From a virus (Duplodnaviria > Heunggongvirae > Uroviricota > Caudoviricetes): a DNA stretch of 46,534 nucleotides. Where the stretch lies: IMG/VR virus record IMGVR_UViG_2667527666_000009. One strand, written 5' to 3'. Both the position numbers and the translations under genes were made by a program. A model generated the notes under the pieces. The model saw nothing but the letters and a program-made list of their open reading frames with translations. It was not told the origin of the DNA and did not search any database. Of the stretch, positions 28,505 to 44,895 are shown one piece after another. Position 1 is the first letter of the stretch; each line of letters starts with the position of its first letter.

Positions 28505-28775
28505 GATGTTACCGTAGTATGTGAGTATCCATCGAATAGACACCAAGCAAAAAAGCTCCCGAAGGAGCCTTCATTTTCACTTTTTTAAATCCAACGACAG
28601 ACGGCTGGCATTTAAGTATTGTGAAATATTATCAAATGTAATCATCATTGATTTACAAAAGATACATTTTGCCCCGAAAGGATTCATGTCAGAAACATCA
28701 AAAGATGATGTTCTATACTGGGAACCATGACAACACGGGCATCTAAAGTGAATATGGTTTGTAATATTGTCTACC

Positions 28776-28988
28776 TCAAAGCGCCACAACATGAACAGCG
28801 GCAGGACCTTTAGGTCCGTTCTCAATACCAAATTCAACTTCCTGATTCTCAGTTAATGTTTTGAAATCGTTGCTCTGAATTGCTGAGAAATGGACAAACA
28901 CATCTTTGCTGCCATCTTTCGGCGTGATGAAACCAAAACCTTTTTCAGGGTTAAACCATTTCACTAAACCAGTCATTTTGTTAGACAT
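28776..28988 (-). CDS. cspI: cold shock protein (CspA family)
   Basis: 70 aa; [38 protein letters not shown] with RNP1/RNP2 motifs. Confidence 0.9.
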
Positions 28989-29350
28989 AATTATTACCTT
29001 TTGAAGAAATTAGCCCTTGGGCAGAATGGTCCGAAAAAAAATATCAGAGAGAAAAACCAACAAGGAAATCTCAAGAGGTACAAATAATAAAATTATAACA
29101 ATGACTGCTTCAGATAAATTTGTAACAAACCAGAACACCATTAACGCATGATTAACCACCCATAGCAAGGATTACTTTTGTAAAGAAAAACACAGCAATG
29201 AAAGAATAGCTTTATTTATTAATAAAACGTGTCATTCTGATTAAGACCTTTTATCTTACCCTTAAGATTTCAGGAATTTTGGCTCATGGAAGAGTCCTTT
29301 TTATTTAAATTTTACATTCCGCGATGTAAATGTTCCGATTTAATATTACC

Positions 29351-31296: not shown

Positions 31297-31659
31297 TTGA
31301 TTTTATTAGTAACAAGTATTTTTTATATTTTAATAATATATTTAAAGCAGATAATAAAAAACCCGCCTGAGCGGGTTTGAGATTGTGGTGCTTTTTGTGG
31401 GAGTCATCCACTTACGCACTTTGTTTTGCCATGCCAGCAGTTAGCTTCTGCTGTAAAACTATTCATGCAGCAAACCTGCACTTCACCACAATGGTTAGCA
31501 TACTTTTCCTGATTAAGATTTTGCCAAATATGCTAGCCATTGTTTCATGTATTGGACCTCCTTACTTTTTATTAAAGAGATCCAATATTCACTACTCTGT
31601 CCGTATCTCTACTCAGGCATCAGCCTTCTTCGTTATCGTATACAGACGAGCGATGAATT

Positions 31660-31875
31660 TTAATCAGTAATGATGACATTTGCTGCTGCAGGACCTTTAG
31701 CACCACTCTCTATAGAGAAGGTAACCTTTTGACCTTCAAATAAGGTTCGATAATTATCATTCTGAATCGCAGAAAAATGCACAAACACATCTTTACTACC
31801 ATCAACAGGAGAAATAAAGCCGAAACCTTTATCAGCGTTAAACCATTTTACTAAACCAGTCATTTTATTTGACAT
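31660..31875 (-). CDS. cspB: cold shock protein (CspA family)
   Basis: 71 aa; [67 protein letters not shown]... Confidence 0.9.
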
Positions 31876-32175
31876 TCTACATTCCTTAACTTGAGCCTTT
31901 CGGCATAAATGGTTTGCATAACAGAAACGACTTCGTACTTAATTGGAGAGACTCAAAGAAGGAATAAGTGAATAACACCTGAAATGAGAACTGCTTTAGT
32001 AAACTACTTCGTATATCGTCTGTTCTTCAAACCGACGCAATCATTAACGCATAGTTGAACATATGAAGCAATGTTTATTTTAGACATCCAGCCATCTTCA
32101 ACCCCATCAAAAAACTATAGCTTTCTTCAGGAACGTGTGTATAGTGCGCCAAGTTATCAGTATTAAGGAATTTTT

Positions 32176-33170: not shown

Positions 33171-33497
33171 ATGACTAAAAATACTCGTTTTTCCCCCGAA
33201 GTCCGTCAACGGGCAGTCCGTATGGTTCTGGAAAGTCAGAGCGAATATGACTCACAATGGGCGACAATTTGTTCCATTGCTCCAAAGATTGGCTGTACGC
33301 CGGAGACTCTGCGTGTCTGGGTTCGCCAGCATGAGCGGGATACCGGGGGCGGTGATGGAGGGCTCACCACCGCTGAACGTCAGCGTCTGAAAGAGCTGGA
33401 ACGTGAAAATCGTGAACTGCGCCGCAGTAACGATATCCTTCGCCAGGCTTCCGCTTATTTTGCGAAGGCGGAGTTCGACCGCCTCTGGAAAAAATGA
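33171..33497 (+). CDS. IS629 transposase OrfA (HTH)
   Basis: 108 aa; [23 protein letters not shown]... matches recalled IS629 OrfA; ends at an A6 tract (33489..33494) where the -1 frameshift to OrfB would occur. Confidence 0.85.
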
Positions 33498-34384
33498 TGC
33501 CACTGCTGGATAAGCTGCGTGAGCAGTACGGGGTCGGACCGCTATGCAGCGAACTGCATATTGCCCCGTCAACGTATTACCACTGTCAGCAACAGCGACA
33601 TCATCCGGATAAACGCAGTGCCCGTGCGCAGCGCGATGACTGGCTGAAGAAAGAGATACAGCGCGTATACGATGAAAATCACAAGGTATACGGTGTGCGT
33701 AAAGTCTGGCGTCAGTTGTTACGGGAAGGTATCAGAGTGGCCAGATGCACTGTGGCACGTCTCATGGCGGTTATGGGACTTGCCGGTGTTCTCCGGGGTA
33801 AAAAGGTCCGTACGACCATCAGCCGGAAAGCCGTTGCCGCAGGCGACCGCGTAAACCGTCAGTTCGTGGCAGAACGACCTGACCAGCTGTGGGTGGCTGA
33901 TTTTACTTACGTCAGCACATGGCGGGGCTTCGTCTATGTGGCGTTCATCATTGATGTGTTTGCCGGATACATCGTGGGGTGGCGGGTCTCATCGTCCATG
34001 GAAACGACATTCGTGCTGGATGCACTGGAGCAGGCGTTATGGGCCCGTCGACCGTCCGGCACGGTCCATCACAGTGATAAAGGTTCTCAGTATGTATCGC
34101 TGGCCTACACACAGCGGCTTAAGGAAGCCGGATTACTGGCATCAACAGGAAGTACAGGCGACTCGTATGACAACGCGATGGCGGAGAGCATCAATGGTCT
34201 TTACAAAGCGGAGGTAATACACCGTAAGAGCTGGAAAAACCGTGCAGAAGTGGAACTGGCCACACTCACGTGGGTGGACTGGTATAACAATCGACGATTG
34301 CTGGAAAGGCTGGGCCATACTCCTCCGGCAGAAGCAGAAAAAGCTTATTATGCTTCCATCGGAAACGATGATCTGGCAGCCTGA
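33494..34384 (+). CDS. IS629 transposase OrfB (DDE integrase core)
   Basis: 296 aa in the -1 frame relative to OrfA; DDE-type catalytic region. Confidence 0.85.
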
Positions 34385-36032: not shown

Positions 36033-36366
36033 GAAAAATCCCCCAGAGAATTGTCTGGGGACATTTTAGAATGGTTCAAAGGGGACATTACAGCTTGGTG
36101 TTAACAATAGCCTGCTTCTCCGTGCCTTTCGGCACGTAAGAGGCTAACCTACATGTGTCTAGCATGAAATTGGCCTCAGATTAATGTTAAGCGTCTTGCA
36201 GGACGCGTAATGTTAACTGGGGCTTTTCTCTATCTGCCGTTGGTGTCCATGCCCGAGGCAGATAGCCTCAAGCACCCGCAGTCATTCTACTTAACTAAGA
36301 TTTCCCCGCAAACCGTTTTTGTCCAGCACAGTAAATATCCAACTAAACCAATGGAGTTCGCTGTAT

Positions 36367-38514: not shown

Positions 38515-39480
38515 TTATCCTCTGAAACCAGGCGGAATTTCTGTATCCGGTTCAGAAATATGATTAACACAACGCTGTACAGGTGAACGTCCCAGGCGGA
38601 TGACCAGTTCGTCCCATTTTTCGCGGAGCTTTGACGGGCTCATGATGTTTTTTACCCAGAATGGATCTCGCTGAACCCGACCAAACATTTCGCAAATTTG
38701 TCTGTGGCTTCTGCCATCCAGCATCCGCATTGTGCGCACGTCATTGGCCCAGGCAGTCCAGTTAGGCTCTTTTGGTCGCATGATCTCGCCATCATCACTG
38801 GCTGCCTGTTCGTAGAGACCCACGATCCGCCCCCAGATCCACTGCGCACACGCCAAATCCTCCCTGCTACCCCACTGGCGTTTTTTCGCACTAAACACAA
38901 CCGCGTCGGAGTTCCGGGTTAAAAAATCCTGTTCAGTCGTCTGCGGGTCCGGTTGCGAAGCTTCCGGACGAAAAGTGTTTTTATTCTCTGTAGTAATCTC
39001 TGTTGTATTCTCTGTAAGATCATCAGGCCATTTTGACCCGATGACATTGGGTCGTTTTGAACCAATGGAGCGTTTCATTTTGACCTCTTCCATCGTGTCA
39101 TTTTGACCTGATGGAGCGGCGCATTTTGAACCGATGGATTCGCTCAATTTGCCACCATCTAAAAGCTCGCTCCCATAGTTGATCGTGTAGAAATTGGTCA
39201 TATCGCGCTTTGATTTATTGAGCTTTTCACAACGCAAAAGCCCCAGCGTTTTCAGACTTACAAACGCGCGCTTTAACGTTGACTCTGACCAGAATGGGAA
39301 CTGTTCCAGCCATTGTTCCGTTGTGTTATAAATCCAGCGAACACCATCACATTCCATGCCGGAGTTGGTATCTCTCAACCAGTAGTGCAGTTGTTGCAAA
39401 ACAATGGCTTCGTTTAAGCCAATTTTCATTGCCAGCTGCGTGTTTATAACCAGTGGGCGTTCAGCAAAAAGAAGGCTCAT
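38515..39480 (-). CDS. phage replication initiator / replisome organiser (O-like)
   Basis: ORF 38515..39534; start taken at ATG 39478..39480 (MSLLFAERPLV...); N-terminal HTH replisome-organiser-like region; position downstream of cro-like and cII-like genes. Confidence 0.6.
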   Translation of the reverse strand: MSLLFAERPLVINTQLAMKIGLNEAIVLQQLHYWLRDTNSGMECDGVRWIYNTTEQWLEQFPFWSESTLKRAFVSLKTLGLLRCEKLNKSKRDMTNFYTINYGSELLDGGKLSESIGSKCAAPSGQNDTMEEVKMKRSIGSKRPNVIGSKWPDDLTENTTEITTENKNTFRPEASQPDPQTTEQDFLTRNSDAVVFSAKKRQWGSREDLACAQWIWGRIVGLYEQAASDDGEIMRPKEPNWTAWANDVRTMRMLDGRSHRQICEMFGRVQRDPFWVKNIMSPSKLREKWDELVIRLGRSPVQRCVNHISEPDTEIPPGFRG

Positions 39481-39982
39481 AATTCCATCCAGCTTTTTGT
39501 TGGTATTGCTGTCGATACGCAAGTTTGAAAGCAATTGCTTTTTCTATAAGTTCGTCAGTTTCACGATCCACTACGGCAGGATCAGCAAAAAGCAGTCCGG
39601 ACTCCACCACATCGCCATATTCTTTGTTTAACCCGGCGATCATGCACGTGATGCTTTTTCCGTCAGTAATTTCACGATACAACCTGAAATCATTAATCCG
39701 GATAGCCTCCATAATTGCAGGCACTAGCGCCGTGAACTTTTCACGCTTATCCCTGGTGTCGATAGCCTTCCAGCGTTCAAATATCTTCACTCGATTAACG
39801 CCAAGCGCTCGCTGATCAATCGCGCCACCTTCATATGTGACACGCTGAACATCGATGTTCGGGCGCTCTTTCAAAGCCCAGAATGCTTCAGTGATTAATA
39901 TCGTCGCCTGCTCCTGTGTCATTCCTGGTCGACATATCCAGGCATCCAGAGCCTCACGAGCCTGTTCAGGAGTGATTTTCAT
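39461..39982 (-). CDS. YdaT-like protein (CII-analogue position)
   Basis: 173 aa; segment DTRDKREKFTALVPAIMEAI resembles YdaT-family proteins; immediately downstream of dicC. Confidence 0.5.
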   Translation of the reverse strand: MKITPEQAREALDAWICRPGMTQEQATILITEAFWALKERPNIDVQRVTYEGGAIDQRALGVNRVKIFERWKAIDTRDKREKFTALVPAIMEAIRINDFRLYREITDGKSITCMIAGLNKEYGDVVESGLLFADPAVVDRETDELIEKAIAFKLAYRQQYQQKAGWNYEPSFC

Positions 39983-40196
39983 TGTTCAACCGCCCCGCCC
40001 GCTTCGTCTTACGATATTCATCATAAACTTTGGGATCATACTGAAGCTCCCCGCCAGATGCCTCCTGTAGACGCATCGCGCGACCTTCGGGAACTAAATC
40101 CCCTTTCCAGCTATAAAGCGAAGCCAAACGAATACCTGCTGCTTGTGCAAGTTTTGTTTTTGAACCGAAATACAAAAGAGCGTCAGTTTTAAGCAT
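39966..40196 (-). CDS. dicC: Cro-like HTH regulator DicC
   Basis: 76 aa; MLKTDALLYFGSKTKLAQAAGIRLASLYSWKGDLVPEGRAMRLQEASGGELQYD...; divergent from dicA. Confidence 0.8.
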   Translation of the reverse strand: MLKTDALLYFGSKTKLAQAAGIRLASLYSWKGDLVPEGRAMRLQEASGGELQYDPKVYDEYRKTKRAGRLNNENHS

Positions 40197-40210
40197 TTAA
40201 AACACCTTTA

Positions 40211-40230
40211 TTGTTAGTCATAACTAACAA
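40211..40230. promoter_or_regulatory. operator palindrome in the dicC-dicA divergent promoter region
   Basis: TTGTTAGTCATAACTAACAA, 8-bp inverted arms around a 4-bp centre. Confidence 0.65.
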
Positions 40231-40279
40231 GATAGATGTTAACAAAAACATAGTCAATACGATTTAGCATTAGCTAACT

Positions 40280-40687
40280 ATGGAAACAAAAAATTTAACT
40301 ATCGGCGAACGCATCAGGTATCGTCGGAAAAACCTCAAACACACCCAAAGGTCTCTTGCTAAAGCCCTGAAAATCTCCCATGTGTCTGTATCACAATGGG
40401 AACGGGGTGATAGTGAACCTACAGGGAAGAACCTTTTTGCCCTCAGCAAAGTATTGCAATGCTCACCAACATGGATTCTATTTGGCGATGAAGACAAGCA
40501 ACCAACACCACCTGTTGAGAAGCCAGTTGCCTTATCCCCCAAAGAACTAGAGCTCCTTGAGCTGTTTAATGCACTGCCAGAATCAGAACAGGATACCCAG
40601 CTCGCCGAAATGCGAGCTCGAGTAAAAAACTTCAATAAACTCTTTGAAGAATTACTAAAAGCCCGTCAGCGGACAAATAAAAGATAA
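40280..40687 (+). CDS. dicA: repressor DicA (cI/C2-like HTH)
   Basis: 135 aa; METKNLTIGERIRYRRKNLKHTQRSLAKALKISHVSVSQWERGDSEPTGKNLFALSKVL... matches recalled DicA. Confidence 0.9.
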   Translation: METKNLTIGERIRYRRKNLKHTQRSLAKALKISHVSVSQWERGDSEPTGKNLFALSKVLQCSPTWILFGDEDKQPTPPVEKPVALSPKELELLELFNALPESEQDTQLAEMRARVKNFNKLFEELLKARQRTNKR

Positions 40688-40720
40688 CATCATCAATGAG
40701 TTATCTTTTACCACATCAAT

Positions 40721-40773
40721 TATGTTAGCTATAACATACAAAATCACTTGACCGATATGTTAGTCATGGCTAA
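40721..40773. promoter_or_regulatory. two operator-like imperfect palindromes upstream of ydfA (dicB-operon promoter region)
   Basis: TATGTTAGCTATAACATA (40721..40738) and TTAGTCATGGCTAA (40760..40773), both related to the 40211..40230 operator. Confidence 0.5.
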
Positions 40774-40853
40774 TCTTGTTTGCATCAACACACCGCACGG
40801 TGTTCTCAGCAAACAGTTCCGCTACCCCAGCGTTAAGGGGAAATGAGGTCAGC

Positions 40854-41009
40854 ATGGATACTATCGATCTTGGCAACAACGAATCTCTGGTGTACGGCGT
40901 GTTTCCAAACCAGGACGGCACGTTCACCGCAATGACGTATACCAAAAGCAAAACGTTTAAAACCGAAAATGGTGCCCGTCGCTGGCTGGAAAGAAACTCA
41001 GGTGAGTGA
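40854..41009 (+). CDS. ydfA: small protein YdfA
   Basis: ORF 40776..41009; start at ATG 40854 preceded by GAGGTCAGC; MDTIDLGNNESLVYGVFPNQDGTFTAMTYTKSKTFKTENGARRWLERNSGE. Confidence 0.8.
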   Translation: MDTIDLGNNESLVYGVFPNQDGTFTAMTYTKSKTFKTENGARRWLERNSGE

Positions 41010-41010
41010 T

Positions 41011-41139
41011 ATGGATTTCGACACAATCATGGAAAAGGCTTACGAAGAATACTTCGAAGGCCTTGCCGAAGGCGAAGAAGCTCTCAGCTTCAGTGAGTTT
41101 AAACAGGCGCTTTCCAGTTCGGCAAAATCTAACGGCTGA
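41011..41139 (+). CDS. ydfB: small protein YdfB
   Basis: manual translation MDFDTIMEKAYEEYFEGLAEGEEALSFSEFKQALSSSAKSNG (42 aa); below the ORF-track size cut-off. Confidence 0.7.
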   Translation: MDFDTIMEKAYEEYFEGLAEGEEALSFSEFKQALSSSAKSNG

Positions 41140-41168
41140 TAAGCGAAACAGCACCGCGAGGAATCAGT

Positions 41169-41387
41169 ATGCAGAAACGAGAACCCGTCATCATCGCGCC
41201 AGACTATACCGATGATGAACTTTATGAGTGGATGCGCCAGAAAATTAATGCAGCGCAGGATCTGAAATGGGCTAATGAAGCCAGGGCTAAGCAGGCTGAA
41301 AATCTGTCCGCTCTGGAGCAGGATATCACCAATCTGGAAAAAGCAGCGGCATTAAGCATTGCCAGAATGATTACATACCCGCGTTAG
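41169..41387 (+). CDS. ydfC: small protein YdfC
   Basis: 72 aa; MQKREPVIIAPDYTDDELYEWMRQKINAAQDLKWANEARAKQ... Confidence 0.8.
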   Translation: MQKREPVIIAPDYTDDELYEWMRQKINAAQDLKWANEARAKQAENLSALEQDITNLEKAAALSIARMITYPR

Positions 41388-41727
41388 TAGCTAATCAACA
41401 AAGCTAAGGTTAGTAATTAAGGAGTTCTCCACGGGTGAGGTGGAGTGCGTGCGCCGGACACGGGTGCGCATCCGGAACTGACAGTTTACTGAAAGGATAT
41501 TTCCCTGAAAAGTCAGACCATAACGCGAAAGCGCACGGCGAGGTAGCTGGTTCATAGATAGCCTGTCGTTAAATTTTCGTCGACCGTGCGCTTCCGGTTG
41601 TGGCAACCCGCGAAATGGCGCGGCGGTAAGTATGGCGGGGTTATTCCTTCCCCGTTGAGGACACCGGGTTGTCAGGTTGACCATACGCTTAAGTGACAAC
41701 CCCGCTGCAACGCCCTCTGTTATCAAT

Positions 41728-41780
41728 TTTCTGGTGACGTTTGGCGGTATCAGTTTTACTCCGTGACTGCTCTGCCGCCC
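41728..41780 (+). ncRNA. dicF: DicF small regulatory RNA (ftsZ-targeting), followed by T-run
   Basis: TTTCTGGTGACGTTTGGCGGTATCAGTTTTACTCCGTGACTGCTCTGCCGCCC matches recalled 53-nt DicF, followed by TTTTT at 41781..41785; lies between ydfC and dicB. Confidence 0.85.
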
Positions 41781-41954
41781 TTTTTAAAGTGAATTTTGTG
41801 ATGTGGTGAATGCGGCTGAGCGCACGCGGAACAGTTAAAACCAAAAACAGTGTTATGGGTGGATTCTCTGTATCCGGCGTTAATTGTTAACTGGTTAACG
41901 TCACCTGGAGGCACCAGGCACTGCATCACAAAATTCATTGTTGAGGACGCGATA

Positions 41955-42143
41955 ATGAAAACGTTATTACCAAACGTTAATACGTCTGAAGGTTGTTTTG
42001 AAATTGGTGTCACTATCAGTAACCCAGTATTTACTGAAGATGCCATTAACAAAAGAAAACAAGAACGGGAGCTATTAAATAAAATATGCATTGTTTCAAT
42101 GCTGGCTCGTTTACGTCTGATGCCAAAAGGATGTGCACAATGA
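41955..42143 (+). CDS. dicB: cell division inhibitor DicB (MinC-interacting)
   Basis: ORF 41850..42143; start at ATG 41955; MKTLLPNVNTSEGCFEIGVTISNPVFTEDAINKRKQERELLNKICIVSMLARLRLMPKGCAQ (62 aa). Confidence 0.9.
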   Translation: MKTLLPNVNTSEGCFEIGVTISNPVFTEDAINKRKQERELLNKICIVSMLARLRLMPKGCAQ

Positions 42144-42331
42144 ATTCAGCATTTGTGCTTGTTCTGACAGTTTTTCTTGTTTCCGGAGAGCCAGTTGATA
42201 TTGCAGTCAGTGTTCACAGGACAATGCAGGAGTGTATGACTGCAGCAACCGAACAGAAAATTCCCGGTAACTGTTACCCGGTCGATAAAGTTATTCACCA
42301 GGATAATATCGAAATCCCGGCAGGTCTTTAA
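42140..42331 (+). CDS. ydfD: small membrane lysis-associated protein YdfD
   Basis: ORF 42086..42331; start at ATG 42140 overlapping the dicB stop (ATGA); MNSAFVLVLTVFLVSGEPVDIAVSVHRTMQECMTAATEQKIPGNCYPVDKVIHQDNIEIPAGL. Confidence 0.85.
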   Translation: MNSAFVLVLTVFLVSGEPVDIAVSVHRTMQECMTAATEQKIPGNCYPVDKVIHQDNIEIPAGL

Positions 42332-42423
42332 AACAGTTCCGTAATAAATATCCGGTTTCATTCTTATATGCCAGCAATGGCAGGGATTTGTTCATCCTTA
42401 AATCTGTCATGAGGTTAAAACAA

Positions 42424-44895
42424 ATGAGTAAAGTCTTTATTTGCGCCGCTATTCCTGACGAACTGGCAACAAGGGAAGAAGGCGCTGTGGCTGTAGCCAC
42501 AGCCATTGAAGCTGGCGACGAACGCCGTGCTCGAGCAAAATTTCACTGGCAATTCCTGGAACATTATCCGGCTGCTCAGGACTGCGCTTATAAATTTATT
42601 GTCTGCGAGGATAAACCTGGCATACCCCGCCCTGCCCTCGATTCATGGGATGCTGAATATATGCAGGAAAACCGCTGGGATGAGGAGTCTGCTTCTTTTG
42701 TCCCGGTTGAGACTGAATCCGATCCGATGAACGTCACTTTTGACAAGCTGGCCCCTGAAGTACAGAACGCTGTCATGGTTAAGTTCGACACATGTGAAAA
42801 CATCACCGTTGATATGGTTATTAGCGCACAGGAATTGTTGCAGGAAGACATGGCAACATTCGACGGACATATCGTTGAAGCGTTGATGAAAATGCCAGAA
42901 GTTAACGCCATGTATCCGGAGCTTAAGTTGCACGCCATTGGGTGGGTTAAGCATAAATGTATTCCTGGTGCTAAATGGCCCGAAATTCAGGCAGAGATGC
43001 GCATCTGGAAAAAACGTCGCGAAGGTGAACGCAAGGAAACCGGAAAATACACGTCTGTTGTTGATCTCGCCCGCGCCAGAGCCAATCAACAGTACACTGA
43101 AAATTCAACAGGAAAAATCAGCCCGGTCATTGCTGCCATTCATCGCGAATACAAGCAGACATGGAAAACACTGGATGACGAACTGGCCTACGCTCTCTGG
43201 CCTGGTGATGTGGATGCCGGAAACATTGACGGCAGCATCCATCGCTGGGCAAAAAAAGAAGTTATCGACAACGACCGCGAAGACTGGAAGCGTATCTCGG
43301 CATCAATGCGCAAACAGCCTGATGCCCTTCGCTACGACCGCCAAACTATTTTTGGCCTTGTCCGTGAGCGTCCGATCGACATTCACAAAGATCCCGTAGC
43401 ACTGAACAAATATATCTGCGAATACCTGACGACAAAGGGCGTGTTTGAGAATGAAGAAACAGACCTGGGCACTGTTGATGTTCTCCAGTCATCAGAAACA
43501 CAAACTGATGCAGTGGAAACTGAGGTATCTGATATCCCAAAAAATGAAACCGCGCCGGAAGCTGAACCATCTGTAGAGCGTGAGGGGCCGTTCTATTTCC
43601 TCTTCGCAGATAAGGACGGAGAAAAATACGGTCGCGCAAACAAACTCTCTGGTCTGGATAAGGCACTGGCTGCTGGCGCCACTGAAATCACAAAAGAAGA
43701 ATATTTTGCCCGAAAAAATGGCACATACACGGGCTTACCGCAAAATGTAGATACCGCTGAAGATTCAGAACAACCAGAGCCGATAAAAGTTACCGCTGAC
43801 GAAGTAAACAAAATTATGCAGGCAGCCAATATCAGCCAGCCTGACGCCGATAAGTTGCTTGCTGCATCACGTGGTGAATTTGTTGAAGGGATTAGTGACC
43901 CGAATGATCCGAAATGGGTTAAGGGGATCCAGACCCGCGATTCTGTGAACCAGAACCAGCATGAATCGGAACGGAACTACCAAAAAGCGGAACAAAACAG
44001 CCCAAATGCGTTACAAAACGAGCCAGAAACGAAACAGCCTGAACCAGTGGCGCAACAGGAAGTGGAAAAAGTCTGCACCGCCTGCGGTCAGACCGGCGGC
44101 GGCAACTGCCCTGATTGTGGCGCGGTGATGGGCGACGCAACATACCAGGAAACATTCGATGAAGAGTATCAGGTTGAAGTTCAGGAAGATGATCCGGAGG
44201 AAATGGAAGGCGCTGAACATCCACACAAGGAGAACACTGGCGGCAATCAGCATCACAATAGCGATAATGAAACTGGCGAGACGGCAGATCACTCAATTAA
44301 GGTGAACGGTCATCACGAAATCACATCCACCAGCAGGACGTGTGACCATCTAATGATCGACCTTGAAACCATGGGAAAAAATCCTGATTCCCCGATCATC
44401 TCAATAGGTGCAATATTTTTCGATCCGCAAACCGGAGATATGGGACCGGAATTTAGTAAGACTATCGATCTGGAAACTGCTGGCGGAGTCATTGATCGGG
44501 ACACCATTAAATGGTGGCTTAAGCAATCACGCGAAGCGCAATCTGCCATTATGACCGATGAAATCCCGTTAGATGATGCACTGTTACAATTGCGGGAATT
44601 TATCGACGAAAACTCCGGTGAATTTTTTGTTCAGGTTTGGGGAAATGGAGCCAACTTCGACAACACGATTTTGCGCCGTTCATACGAACGGCAGGGGATC
44701 CCCTGCCCGTGGCGTTACTACAACGATCGCGATGTACGCACAATCGTTGAGCTGGGGAAAGCCATAGAATTCGATGCCAGAACGGCTATTCCATTCGAAG
44801 GTGAGCGCCATAATGCACTTGATGACGCCCGTTACCAGGCAAAATACGTTTCAGTTATCTGGCAAAAACTGATCCCGAGTCAGGCTGATTCTTAA
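42424..44895 (+). CDS. ydfE: YdfE, full length: N-terminal domain, acidic linker, CxxC-x-CxxC zinc ribbon, C-terminal DEDDh 3'-5' exonuclease-like domain
   Basis: ORF 42388..44895; start taken at ATG 42424 (MSKVFICAAIPDELATREEGAVAVA...); C-terminus has Exo I (MIDLET), Exo II (WGNGANFD) and Exo III (HNALDDARYQA) motifs. Confidence 0.75.
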   Translation: MSKVFICAAIPDELATREEGAVAVATAIEAGDERRARAKFHWQFLEHYPAAQDCAYKFIVCEDKPGIPRPALDSWDAEYMQENRWDEESASFVPVETESDPMNVTFDKLAPEVQNAVMVKFDTCENITVDMVISAQELLQEDMATFDGHIVEALMKMPEVNAMYPELKLHAIGWVKHKCIPGAKWPEIQAEMRIWKKRREGERKETGKYTSVVDLARARANQQYTENSTGKISPVIAAIHREYKQTWKTLDDELAYALWPGDVDAGNIDGSIHRWAKKEVIDNDREDWKRISASMRKQPDALRYDRQTIFGLVRERPIDIHKDPVALNKYICEYLTTKGVFENEETDLGTVDVLQSSETQTDAVETEVSDIPKNETAPEAEPSVEREGPFYFLFADKDGEKYGRANKLSGLDKALAAGATEITKEEYFARKNGTYTGLPQNVDTAEDSEQPEPIKVTADEVNKIMQAANISQPDADKLLAASRGEFVEGISDPNDPKWVKGIQTRDSVNQNQHESERNYQKAEQNSPNALQNEPETKQPEPVAQQEVEKVCTACGQTGGGNCPDCGAVMGDATYQETFDEEYQVEVQEDDPEEMEGAEHPHKENTGGNQHHNSDNETGETADHSIKVNGHHEITSTSRTCDHLMIDLETMGKNPDSPIISIGAIFFDPQTGDMGPEFSKTIDLETAGGVIDRDTIKWWLKQSREAQSAIMTDEIPLDDALLQLREFIDENSGEFFVQVWGNGANFDNTILRRSYERQGIPCPWRYYNDRDVRTIVELGKAIEFDARTAIPFEGERHNALDDARYQAKYVSVIWQKLIPSQADS

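Follow-up and report, generated by a model that had tools for sequence, protein, structure and literature searches.

The stretch of DNA analysed here (the window, 46.5 kb) very probably belongs to a lambdoid E. coli prophage of the Qin type and carries its immunity region together with its early-left, PL-like operon. Over positions 39966-42331, 2362 of 2366 bases were identical to E. coli K-12 MG1655 (99.8%), and the four SNPs were either synonymous (40447 within dicA and 42053 within dicB) or non-coding (40734, A here and G in K-12, within the distal dicBp operator's variable spacer; 41536, C here and T in K-12, in the DicF-precursor duplex). The gene set, gene order, operators and DicF are all shared with the dicC-dicA/ydfABC-dicF-dicB-ydfD segment of the cryptic K-12 prophage Qin (b1569-b1576), and hundreds of complete genomes annotate the region as dicC, dicA, ydfABC, dicB and ydfD. 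The earlier note on this DNA had read the ydfABC-dicF-dicB-ydfD operon as intact, and it was: all genes, including dicC and dicA, are intact and near-identical to their K-12 counterparts. This is a division-inhibitor locus whose interpretation has already been published; the observation itself is real, and ordinary.

The prophage around the locus is less decayed than K-12 Qin. On the plus strand beyond the operon, an 823-aa exonuclease gene (42424-44895; Pfam Rv2179c-like domain, 225 bits; annotation taken from near-identical genomes) is the full-length counterpart of ydfE, which in K-12 is an IS2-truncated pseudogene. It is followed by xis and int, annotated as intact in genomes near-identical to the window, whereas int is a pseudogene in K-12. 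To the left of dicC, the window has YdaT-like, replication, DUF977 and methyltransferase genes where K-12 retains only the ydfX and ydfW remnants. Escherichia phage PhiR42_1 (ECOR13; PV340562) is 99.7% identical to the window over dicC-dicA-ydfA and also has DicF, with exonuclease, xis and int downstream; unlike the window prophage, it was deposited as a complete phage genome, and its automatic annotation mislabels ydfA as 'head-DNA stabilization protein D'.

The two regulatory genes are divergent and lie 83 bp apart. dicC (39966-40196, minus strand) encodes a Cro-like repressor of 76 aa that is identical to that of K-12 (NCBIfam NF007282, 159.5 bits, cut-off 130; Pfam P22_Cro, 44.1 bits). The opposite strand carries dicA (40280-40687), a CI-like repressor of 135 aa which matched NCBIfam NF007257 over residues 4-135 (234.3 bits, curated cut-off 101) and, at its N-terminus, Pfam HTH_3 and Phage_CI_repr; a Pfam search for an S24 self-cleavage (peptidase) domain in the 135 aa returned only HTH domains. 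Overlapping the dicA stop codon is an inverted repeat, TAAAAGATAAC-N11-GTTATCTTTTA (40678-40710, plus strand), that folds at -11.4 kcal/mol and is probably the dicA terminator; relatives at 93% identity have changes that give a longer stem (-16 kcal/mol) and an added T-run. The operon then runs on the plus strand through ydfA (40854-41009, 51 aa, DUF1391 = PF07151, 98.5 bits, identical to K-12), ydfB (41011-41139, 42 aa) and ydfC (41169-41387, 72 aa), the last two being ORFs identical to the annotated K-12 genes with no family match in the Pfam search. Further downstream, dicB (41955-42143, 62 aa, with its one synonymous SNP) scored above the cut-offs over the full 62-aa model (Pfam PF05358, 136.8 bits; NCBIfam NF049927, 132.8 bits). 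It is directly followed by ydfD (42140-42331, 63 aa, identical to K-12), the ATG of which overlaps the dicB stop and the product of which matched Pfam DUF1482 (91.1 bits, cut-off 25); a lysis-protein role for YdfD is published, in agreement with the lysis association that had been proposed for it. A scan found a weak terminator-like hairpin after ydfD (42369-42382, plus strand), and its position would fit the end of the 1,608-nt ydfABC-dicFB-ydfD transcript, the longest one observed in K-12.

Between dicC and dicA, the 20-mer TTGTTAGTCATAACTAACAA (40211-40230) is exactly the operator Oc shown to bind DicA in vivo (Yun 2012; PMC3441716). The claim of a perfect 20-bp palindrome at this place was correct as to location and wrong as to perfection: Oc consists of 8-bp arms, TTGTTAGT and ACTAACAA, flanking a non-symmetric CATA, and differs at 2 positions from its own reverse complement, while the perfect form (with a CATG centre) is present in related prophages. 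Its conserved core is TGTTAG-N6-CTAACA (40212-40229). Published work has established that DicA on Oc shuts off dicC and activates dicA, and that one A-to-C change, in the CTAACA half-site of Oc, abolishes repression by DicA in vivo (PMC3441716). Our promoter scan placed a dicC promoter-like site at 40229-40257 on the minus strand (-35 TTGACT, 17-bp spacer, -10 TATCTT), with Oc overlapping the -10, a placement in accord with what PMC3441716 describes for its Fig. 5B. Two weak operator-like sites in the same spacer, ATGTT-N6-AACAT (40236-40251) and ATTTAG-N6-CTAACT (40262-40279), lie ~23-27 bp away from Oc, a spacing like that of lambdoid OR1-3, and are probably the sites called 'Om' and 'Oa' in published work. 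Because Om and Oa, recognised from sequence alone, failed to bind DicA in vivo (PMC3441716), resemblance to an operator does not by itself prove binding.

On the other side of dicA, the promoter dicBp can be read at 40748-40776 on the plus strand (-35 TTGACC at 40748-40753, 17-bp spacer, -10 TAATCT at 40771-40776). Its -10 is weak and a consensus promoter scan missed it; it was located by its layout, which recurs across 5 operator types, together with published transcript coordinates. A start at ~40783-40784, as this promoter implies, is consistent with the 190-nt DicF precursor and with the RNase III site published at +813/814. The two related imperfect palindromes reported between dicA and ydfA are real and flank or enter this promoter as putative operators, a distal one upstream of the -35 (TGTTAG-CTATAA-CATACA, 40723-40740), with a right half, CATACA, that matches CTAACA poorly, and a proximal one between the -35 and the -10 (TGTTAG-TCATGG-CTAATC, 40758-40775). 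When the whole window was searched on both strands for TGTTAG-N6-CTAACA with up to 2 mismatches, the only 3 matches were Oc and the two dicBp sites. The motif count by itself is not significant (3 seen against 1.36 expected); the location is, with the two extra matches falling within the 167-bp dicA-ydfA spacer (Poisson P ~1e-5).

Across 50 haplotypes, the half-sites of all three operators were nearly fixed while the central 6 bp varied, the minor-allele fractions being 0.000 versus 0.167 for Oc, 0.018 versus 0.173 for the distal dicBp site and 0.012 versus 0.130 for the proximal one. Relatives with a different repressor carry other half-sites (CTTAG, TTGAG/ATGAG) at equivalent promoter positions and keep the 35-36 bp spacing. 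In O157 PPompW the half-sites are CCTTAG-N6-CTAAGG and in mEp460 they are of the ATTGAG/CTCAAT type, compared with TGTTAG/CTAAnn in the window; where the dicC-dicA spacer of these two was read, the half-sites of their own dicBp recur there. The operator reading is thus supported, because the TGTTAG/CTAAnn half-sites are near-invariant, the centre varies and the heteroimmune half-sites differ in the same positions. These patterns suggest that a DicA-type operator consists of conserved TGTTAG/CTAAnn half-sites around a free 6-bp spacer, a definition that would place the two dicBp sites, and we infer that these are the actual contact points of DicA. DicA is known to repress dicBp 22-fold, with Rem relieving the repression, and both intergenic regions have been reported to contain operator sequences like lambda PR and PL. 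Repression by DicA in both directions, as had been proposed, agrees with the published control of dicC through Oc and the published repression of dicBp, the sites at the latter being putative.

The A at 40734 turns the distal site into a perfect 7-4-7 palindrome (TATGTTA-GCTA-TAACATA), and this SNP was considered as creating a stronger operator. That idea was rejected; the register conserved across the 50 haplotypes is TGTTAG-N6-CAtACA, and the SNP is not functionally notable because it lies inside the central 6 bp, which vary freely and in all three sites often show A/G polymorphism. The exact 55-bp haplotype with A at 40734 occurred in 2 of 5426 complete genomes and the K-12 form in 603, counts that refer to exact 28-mers of the haplotype and not to base 40734 itself.

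The dicF sRNA gene (41729-41786, plus strand), which includes the intrinsic-terminator hairpin (-15.9 kcal/mol) and the U-run that follows it (UUUUU), is 100% identical to K-12 dicF. The earlier note had named an absence of DicF similarity in an Rfam scan as refuting; the scan instead matched the full length of RF00039 (model 1-52/52) at 41729-41780 with 76.7 bits (gathering 48; E = 2.6e-15). A permissive Rfam search of 40150-42450 gave, besides DicF, only a sub-threshold STnc100 match in the dicF-dicB spacer. Upstream of dicF, a structured untranslated spacer with the DicF precursor extends over 41388-41728 on the plus strand (fold of 41388-41800, z = -2.3). In it, the duplex 41531-41538/41584-41591 adjoins the published RNase III site (~41596/41597), and the C at 41536 makes a C-G pair in this duplex where K-12 has a U-G wobble; processing of the DicF precursor by the RNases III and E is published. 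Published work on the identical K-12 RNA has also established that DicF is an antisense inhibitor that pairs with ftsZ mRNA, and that DicB inhibits division through MinC independently of DicF, in line with the two independent division inhibitors that had been ascribed to the operon.

Could the palindromes be chance features of AT-rich intergenic DNA? The window total is not far above expectation, but all three matches fall in the two spacers that flank dicA, their half-sites are essentially invariant across the haplotypes and one of them, Oc, has been validated experimentally (PMC3441716). We give a chance origin next to no credence; the in vivo test of Oc, the conservation across 50 haplotypes and the comparison of heteroimmune half-sites effectively refute it. 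A different reading takes Oc as the sole true DicA site and the dicBp palindromes as DicC sites or relics, with control by DicA being indirect or exerted through an unrecognised site. It draws on the lack of DicA binding to Om and Oa in vivo (PMC3441716), on the Reg-Seq summary of prior evidence at dicB, which lists the DicA site as low-evidence and of unknown location (PMC7567609), and on DicC ChIP-seq, which infers DicC sites flanking dicA with a motif, TT(A/C/T)G...C(G/A/T)AA, that fits the dicBp palindromes. However, the proximal site is placed between -35 and -10 of dicBp, and its conserved half-sites are altered in heteroimmune relatives in step with the Oc-type site. Moreover, CI and Cro share operators in lambdoid switches, so binding of DicC at the dicBp sites does not exclude DicA. 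We therefore regard this reading as improbable.

It also seems quite improbable that internal promoters of their own account for most expression of dicF and dicB, with DicA control of dicBp being minor and the genes not forming one DicA-controlled operon. A transcription-unit list (reference 12 of a 2024 preprint) does place promoters upstream of dicF and of dicB, and the operon has the DicF terminator within it. Against this, internal promoters left no trace in published primer-extension, Northern-blot and RT-PCR work, the 5′ end of the 190-nt DicF is an RNase III cut, and derepression of dicBp induced by Rem leads to filamentation that depends on DicB and DicF. Between ydfC and dicB, our promoter scan likewise picked up no sigma-70-like site on the plus strand. 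A single operon read from dicBp under DicA control remains the reading that we prefer.

The 5′ leader of the dicBp transcript (40783-40853, plus strand) is conserved, nearly invariant across the 50 haplotypes. It contains a 14-bp palindrome (ACACCG-CA-CGGTGT, 40790-40803), a boxA-like TGTTCTCA (40801-40808) and a small hairpin (CGCT-ACCCC-AGCG, 40820-40832). We also observed ~60 nt of leader conserved behind at least 5 operator/promoter sets and ahead of at least 6 different first genes. The hairpin was dropped as an established structure, the covariation being limited to a single pair (T-A, T-G and C-G occur, C-A never), which is too little. The permissive Rfam search gave no match in the leader, and no second copy of its motifs (a nutR analogue) was present across the window at up to 3 mismatches. 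A literature search for dicB and nutL together found no paper. The leader (~40783-40842) might act in cis as a module of its own, at the RNA or DNA level, such as a nutL/put-like element, a stabiliser of the 5′ end or the target of a regulator common to heteroimmune phages, a suggestion that we consider unlikely. If it were true, a nut/put-like leader would let RNA polymerase pass the DicF terminator to reach dicB.

The locus shares divergent repressor and cro genes with the immunity regions of lambda and P22 (cI/c2, cro, OR, OL, PR, PRM, PL) and, like them, has operators on either side of the repressor gene that overlap the leftward and rightward early promoters of a bistable arrangement: Oc lies on the -10 of dicCp and the proximal site between the -35 and -10 of dicBp. 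Unlike the lambda and P22 repressors, the 135-aa DicA has no LexA/S24-type cleavage domain and is not SOS-inducible, being inactivated instead by the Rem antirepressor. The literature already describes this departure (no Ala-Gly cleavage bond in DicA, no induction of dicBp by mitomycin C and RecA-independent spontaneous induction), and membership of the Qin/DicA subgroup is unaffected. In place of three operators per side, one strong and two weak sites were recognisable on the dicC side and two sites, 35 bp apart, on the dicBp side; the literature speaks of three operators. A recognisable N-like gene does not head the PL-like operon here, unlike in lambda and P22. The heteroimmune relatives (O157 PPompW, mEp460/HannyBb and further IMG/VR types) share with the window the gene layout, a 135-aa repressor, dicF, dicB, the placement of the operators against the -35 and -10, and the transcript leader, and differ in repressor sequence, the PPompW region being ~70% identical in DNA.

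The mechanism that we propose combines properties computed here (sequence identity, gene and RNA families, where the sites lie, how they are conserved and how they covary with repressor type) with activities taken from the literature (DicA-Oc binding, dicBp repression, RNA processing and the functions of DicF, DicB and YdfD). A dimer of DicA, a short CI-like HTH repressor, would bind TGTTAG-N6-CTAAnn sites. On Oc it would cover the -10 of the leftward dicC promoter, so that dicC is off and dicA is activated, the activation being published; at the two dicBp sites it would exclude RNA polymerase and keep ydfA-ydfB-ydfC-dicF-dicB-ydfD silent. The Cro-like DicC would use the same region in the opposite sense, giving a bistable switch. 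Inactivation of DicA (in published work brought about by heat, urea, the Rem antirepressor or stochastic switching) would release a polycistronic RNA from ~40783. [quoted passage not shown]

The locus has been under study since 1985-1990, and again in 2012-2024, and the finding as stated brings nothing new; the locus serves as a positive control, in that a reader without tools correctly picked out an sRNA as well as a prophage switch with its operators. The half-site definition and the siting of the putative dicBp operators go beyond the published literature that we consulted. The conservation of the leader may also be new, and the leader could bear on how dicB comes to be expressed beyond the DicF terminator.

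After reading 39200-43200 of the window, we listed its open reading frames. On the minus strand, a 76-aa ORF at 39966-40196 matched DicC (NF007282, 159.5 bits; Pfam P22_Cro), and on the plus strand a 135-aa ORF at 40280-40687 matched DicA (NF007257, 234.3 bits; Pfam HTH_3). Further along the plus strand came YdfA (40854-41009, DUF1391 profile match), two small ORFs known from the listing (41011-41139 and 41169-41387), 340 nt in which the listing gave no credible ORF, DicB (41955-42143; PF05358, 136.8 bits; NF049927) and YdfD (42140-42331, DUF1482 profile match). An Rfam scan at the gathering threshold, covering the whole window, recovered the DicF that the earlier note had claimed, at 41729-41780 (RF00039, full-length model, 76.7 bits against a threshold of 48). 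That note had also spoken of two independent division inhibitors and a lysis-associated ydfD; these roles are published, DicF blocking translation of ftsZ, DicB working through MinC and YdfD being a lysis protein (PMC10448788). When 39900-42400 was searched by megablast against 5,426 complete E. coli genomes, 763 of them gave a near-full-length match, the best matches being 99.9% identical and annotated as dicC, dicA, ydfC, dicB and ydfD. Compared with the Qin prophage of K-12 MG1655 (b1569-b1576), the aligned stretch 39966-42331 differed at 4 of 2366 positions: 40447 and 42053, synonymous in dicA and dicB respectively, and the non-coding 40734 and 41536. Because these differences are few, silent or non-coding, and DicF is identical in both sequences, the description of the operon as intact stands.

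The operator between dicC and dicA, Oc, corresponds to the 20-mer TTGTTAGTCATAACTAACAA at 40211-40230. It had been put forward as a perfect 20-bp palindrome, but the asymmetric CATA at its centre leaves two positions at which it departs from its reverse complement; its arms are 8 bp, and the perfect form, with a CATG centre, was found in related prophages. Letter for letter, it is the Oc that Yun et al. cloned before a reporter, where repression was DicA-dependent and was lost on a single A-to-C change; DicA bound there represses dicC and activates dicA, and two more sites predicted from sequence, Om and Oa, showed no DicA binding in vivo (PMC3441716). In a promoter scan, the -10 of a promoter-like site pointing leftward (TTGACT, 17 bp, TATCTT) abuts Oc.

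On the other side of dicA, dicBp, the promoter of the ydfABC-dicF-dicB-ydfD operon, is derepressed 22-fold by deletion of dicA (Ragunathan et al., PMC10448788). The proposal that DicA represses in both directions is supported. The same work by Ragunathan et al. reports lambda PR- and PL-like operator sequences in both intergenic regions (citing Bejar 1988), a DicA without a RecA cleavage site, and induction of dicBp by the Rem antirepressor, urea and heat (PMC10448788). From ChIP-seq, DicC sites have been inferred to either side of dicA (PMC11430063), and the exact DicA site at dicBp has been graded as low-evidence, its location being unknown (PMC7567609). A search for TGTTAG-N6-CTAACA with at most two mismatches, on both strands of the 46.5-kb window, gave three matches, at 40212, 40723 and 40758, against 1.36 expected; the count alone is unremarkable. 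All three fell inside the two spacers flanking dicA, and the Poisson probability of two extra matches falling within the 167-bp dicA-ydfA spacer is ~1e-5. The two related imperfect palindromes noticed earlier in this spacer are thus present, the distal site (40723-40740) just upstream of the dicBp -35 and the proximal site (40758-40775) between the -35 TTGACC (40748-40753) and the -10 TAATCT (40771-40776).

Eighty IMG/VR loci with DicA at 93-100% identity were reduced to 50 distinct haplotypes of 40197-40860. Over all intergenic DNA the mean minor-allele fraction was 0.047, and in the half-sites and central 6 bp it was 0.000 and 0.167 for Oc, 0.018 and 0.173 for the distal dicBp site, and 0.012 and 0.130 for the proximal one. 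Half-sites are conserved and centres variable, and the conserved unit is therefore TGTTAG-N6-CTAAnn, its spacer being free to vary, which is the pattern to be expected of a dimeric HTH repressor. Base 40734, in the distal operator, is A in the window and G in K-12, and the A makes the site a perfect 7-4-7 palindrome; MS 21-1 and PEC1011 are the only 2 of the 5426 complete genomes with the exact 55-bp haplotype containing A, and 603 have the K-12 form. We rejected it as a notable operator change since, in the conserved N6 register, it belongs to the variable spacer, where A/G changes are common; this SNP is probably neutral.

Heteroimmune relatives with the same gene layout carry different half-sites at the same promoter positions. 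The O157 prophage PPompW (~70% DNA identity) has CCTTAG-N6-CTAAGG adjoining dicC and, at its PL-like promoter, CTTAG-type sites with a spacing of 36 bp; phage mEp460 has ATTGAG/CTCAAT-type sites at both places; and a scan of viral contigs gave at least five operator types with this layout. That the sites change together with the repressor and yet keep their promoter positions supports the operator assignment made earlier for the candidate dicBp sites. A further operator type, TTGTTAGATCAATCTAACAA, was seen in four IMG/VR contigs (L092, L152, L168 and L204), where it occupies the distal PL-like position and is followed by the conserved transcript leader described below; its half-sites are those of Oc, and it may share DicA specificity.

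When the published RNase III cut at +813/814, which yields a 190-nt DicF precursor ending at the DicF terminator (PMC10448788), is combined with window coordinates, transcription would start at ~40783-40784, 7-8 nt past the proposed -10. At the DicF 3' end a hairpin of -15.9 kcal/mol is followed by a U-run, and the operon therefore holds an intrinsic terminator upstream of dicB. The right-hand boundary given to the operon is reasonable, because the longest transcript seen in K-12, 1,608 nt (PMC10448788), would end at ~42391, just past a weak terminator-like hairpin detected by scanning at 42369-42382. Compared with shuffled controls, the ydfC-dicF spacer has a somewhat better fold (z = -2.3). 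Base 41536, C in the window and in CP026085 (the only other genome aligned) and T in K-12, forms a C-G pair in the duplex 41531-41538/41584-41591, as against a U-G wobble in K-12, and this duplex adjoins the site at which RNase III is reported to cut the DicF precursor. The stop codon of dicA falls within an 11-bp inverted repeat (40678-40710), the probable terminator of this gene; in DicA relatives at 93% identity, changes lengthen the stem to ~13 bp and add a T-run. Spanning the dicF-dicB spacer, a full-length but sub-threshold match (41778-41987; 34.4 bits against a gathering threshold of 47, E = 3e-5) to the Salmonella sRNA candidate STnc100 (RF02076) suggests that STnc100 is itself the homologue of this prophage region.

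The prophage around the switch is much less decayed than K-12 Qin. A full-length gene for an 823-aa exonuclease, with an Rv2179c-like 3'-5' exonuclease domain at its C-terminus by profile search, lies 3' of ydfD at 42424-44895 and is followed by xis and then int, the stretch reaching ~46500, whereas the K-12 counterparts of exonuclease and int are the IS2-truncated ydfE and the intQ pseudogene. To the left of dicC are YdaT-like, replication, DUF977 and methyltransferase genes. The window prophage closely resembles PhiR42_1 (ECOR13), deposited as a complete phage genome, whose switch region is 99.7% identical. There a ydfA-region gene (L005 7835-8044) is labelled 'head-DNA stabilization protein D', as is the ydfA region in vB_EcoS-689R5 and vB_EcoM-606R7; the label looks like an annotation error. 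Other Rfam matches in the window (28749-29134, 31644-32036, 33452-33568 and 36106-36277) are two cspA-type thermoregulator leaders of prophage cold-shock genes, an ALIL frameshift pseudoknot from an IS3-family transposase and the sok antitoxin RNA of hok/sok, adjoining relBE.

The dicBp transcript begins with a leader of ~60 nt (CATCAA-ACACCGCACGGTGT-TCTCAGCAAACAGTTCCGCTACCCCAGCGTTAAGGGGA; within 40783-40853) that hardly varies. Among viral contigs and phages it is kept after operator/promoter sets of at least five different kinds and ahead of first genes of at least six, and both its edges are mosaic junctions, the left one at the predicted start site. Its elements are a perfect 14-bp palindrome (ACACCG-CA-CGGTGT), the boxA-like TGTTCTCA and a small hairpin (CGCT-ACCCC-AGCG) whose closing pair is T-A, T-G or C-G and never C-A. 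The leader matched no Rfam family, the window holds no second copy of it, and the literature searched contained no publication pairing dicB with nutL. It may be a nut/put-like element; it could be a 5' stabiliser, a site for a shared regulator or a mere recombination linker. The DicA/DicF/DicB system is already known in detail, and to it our comparison would add an operator footprint and a conserved leader, both minor and both candidates only.
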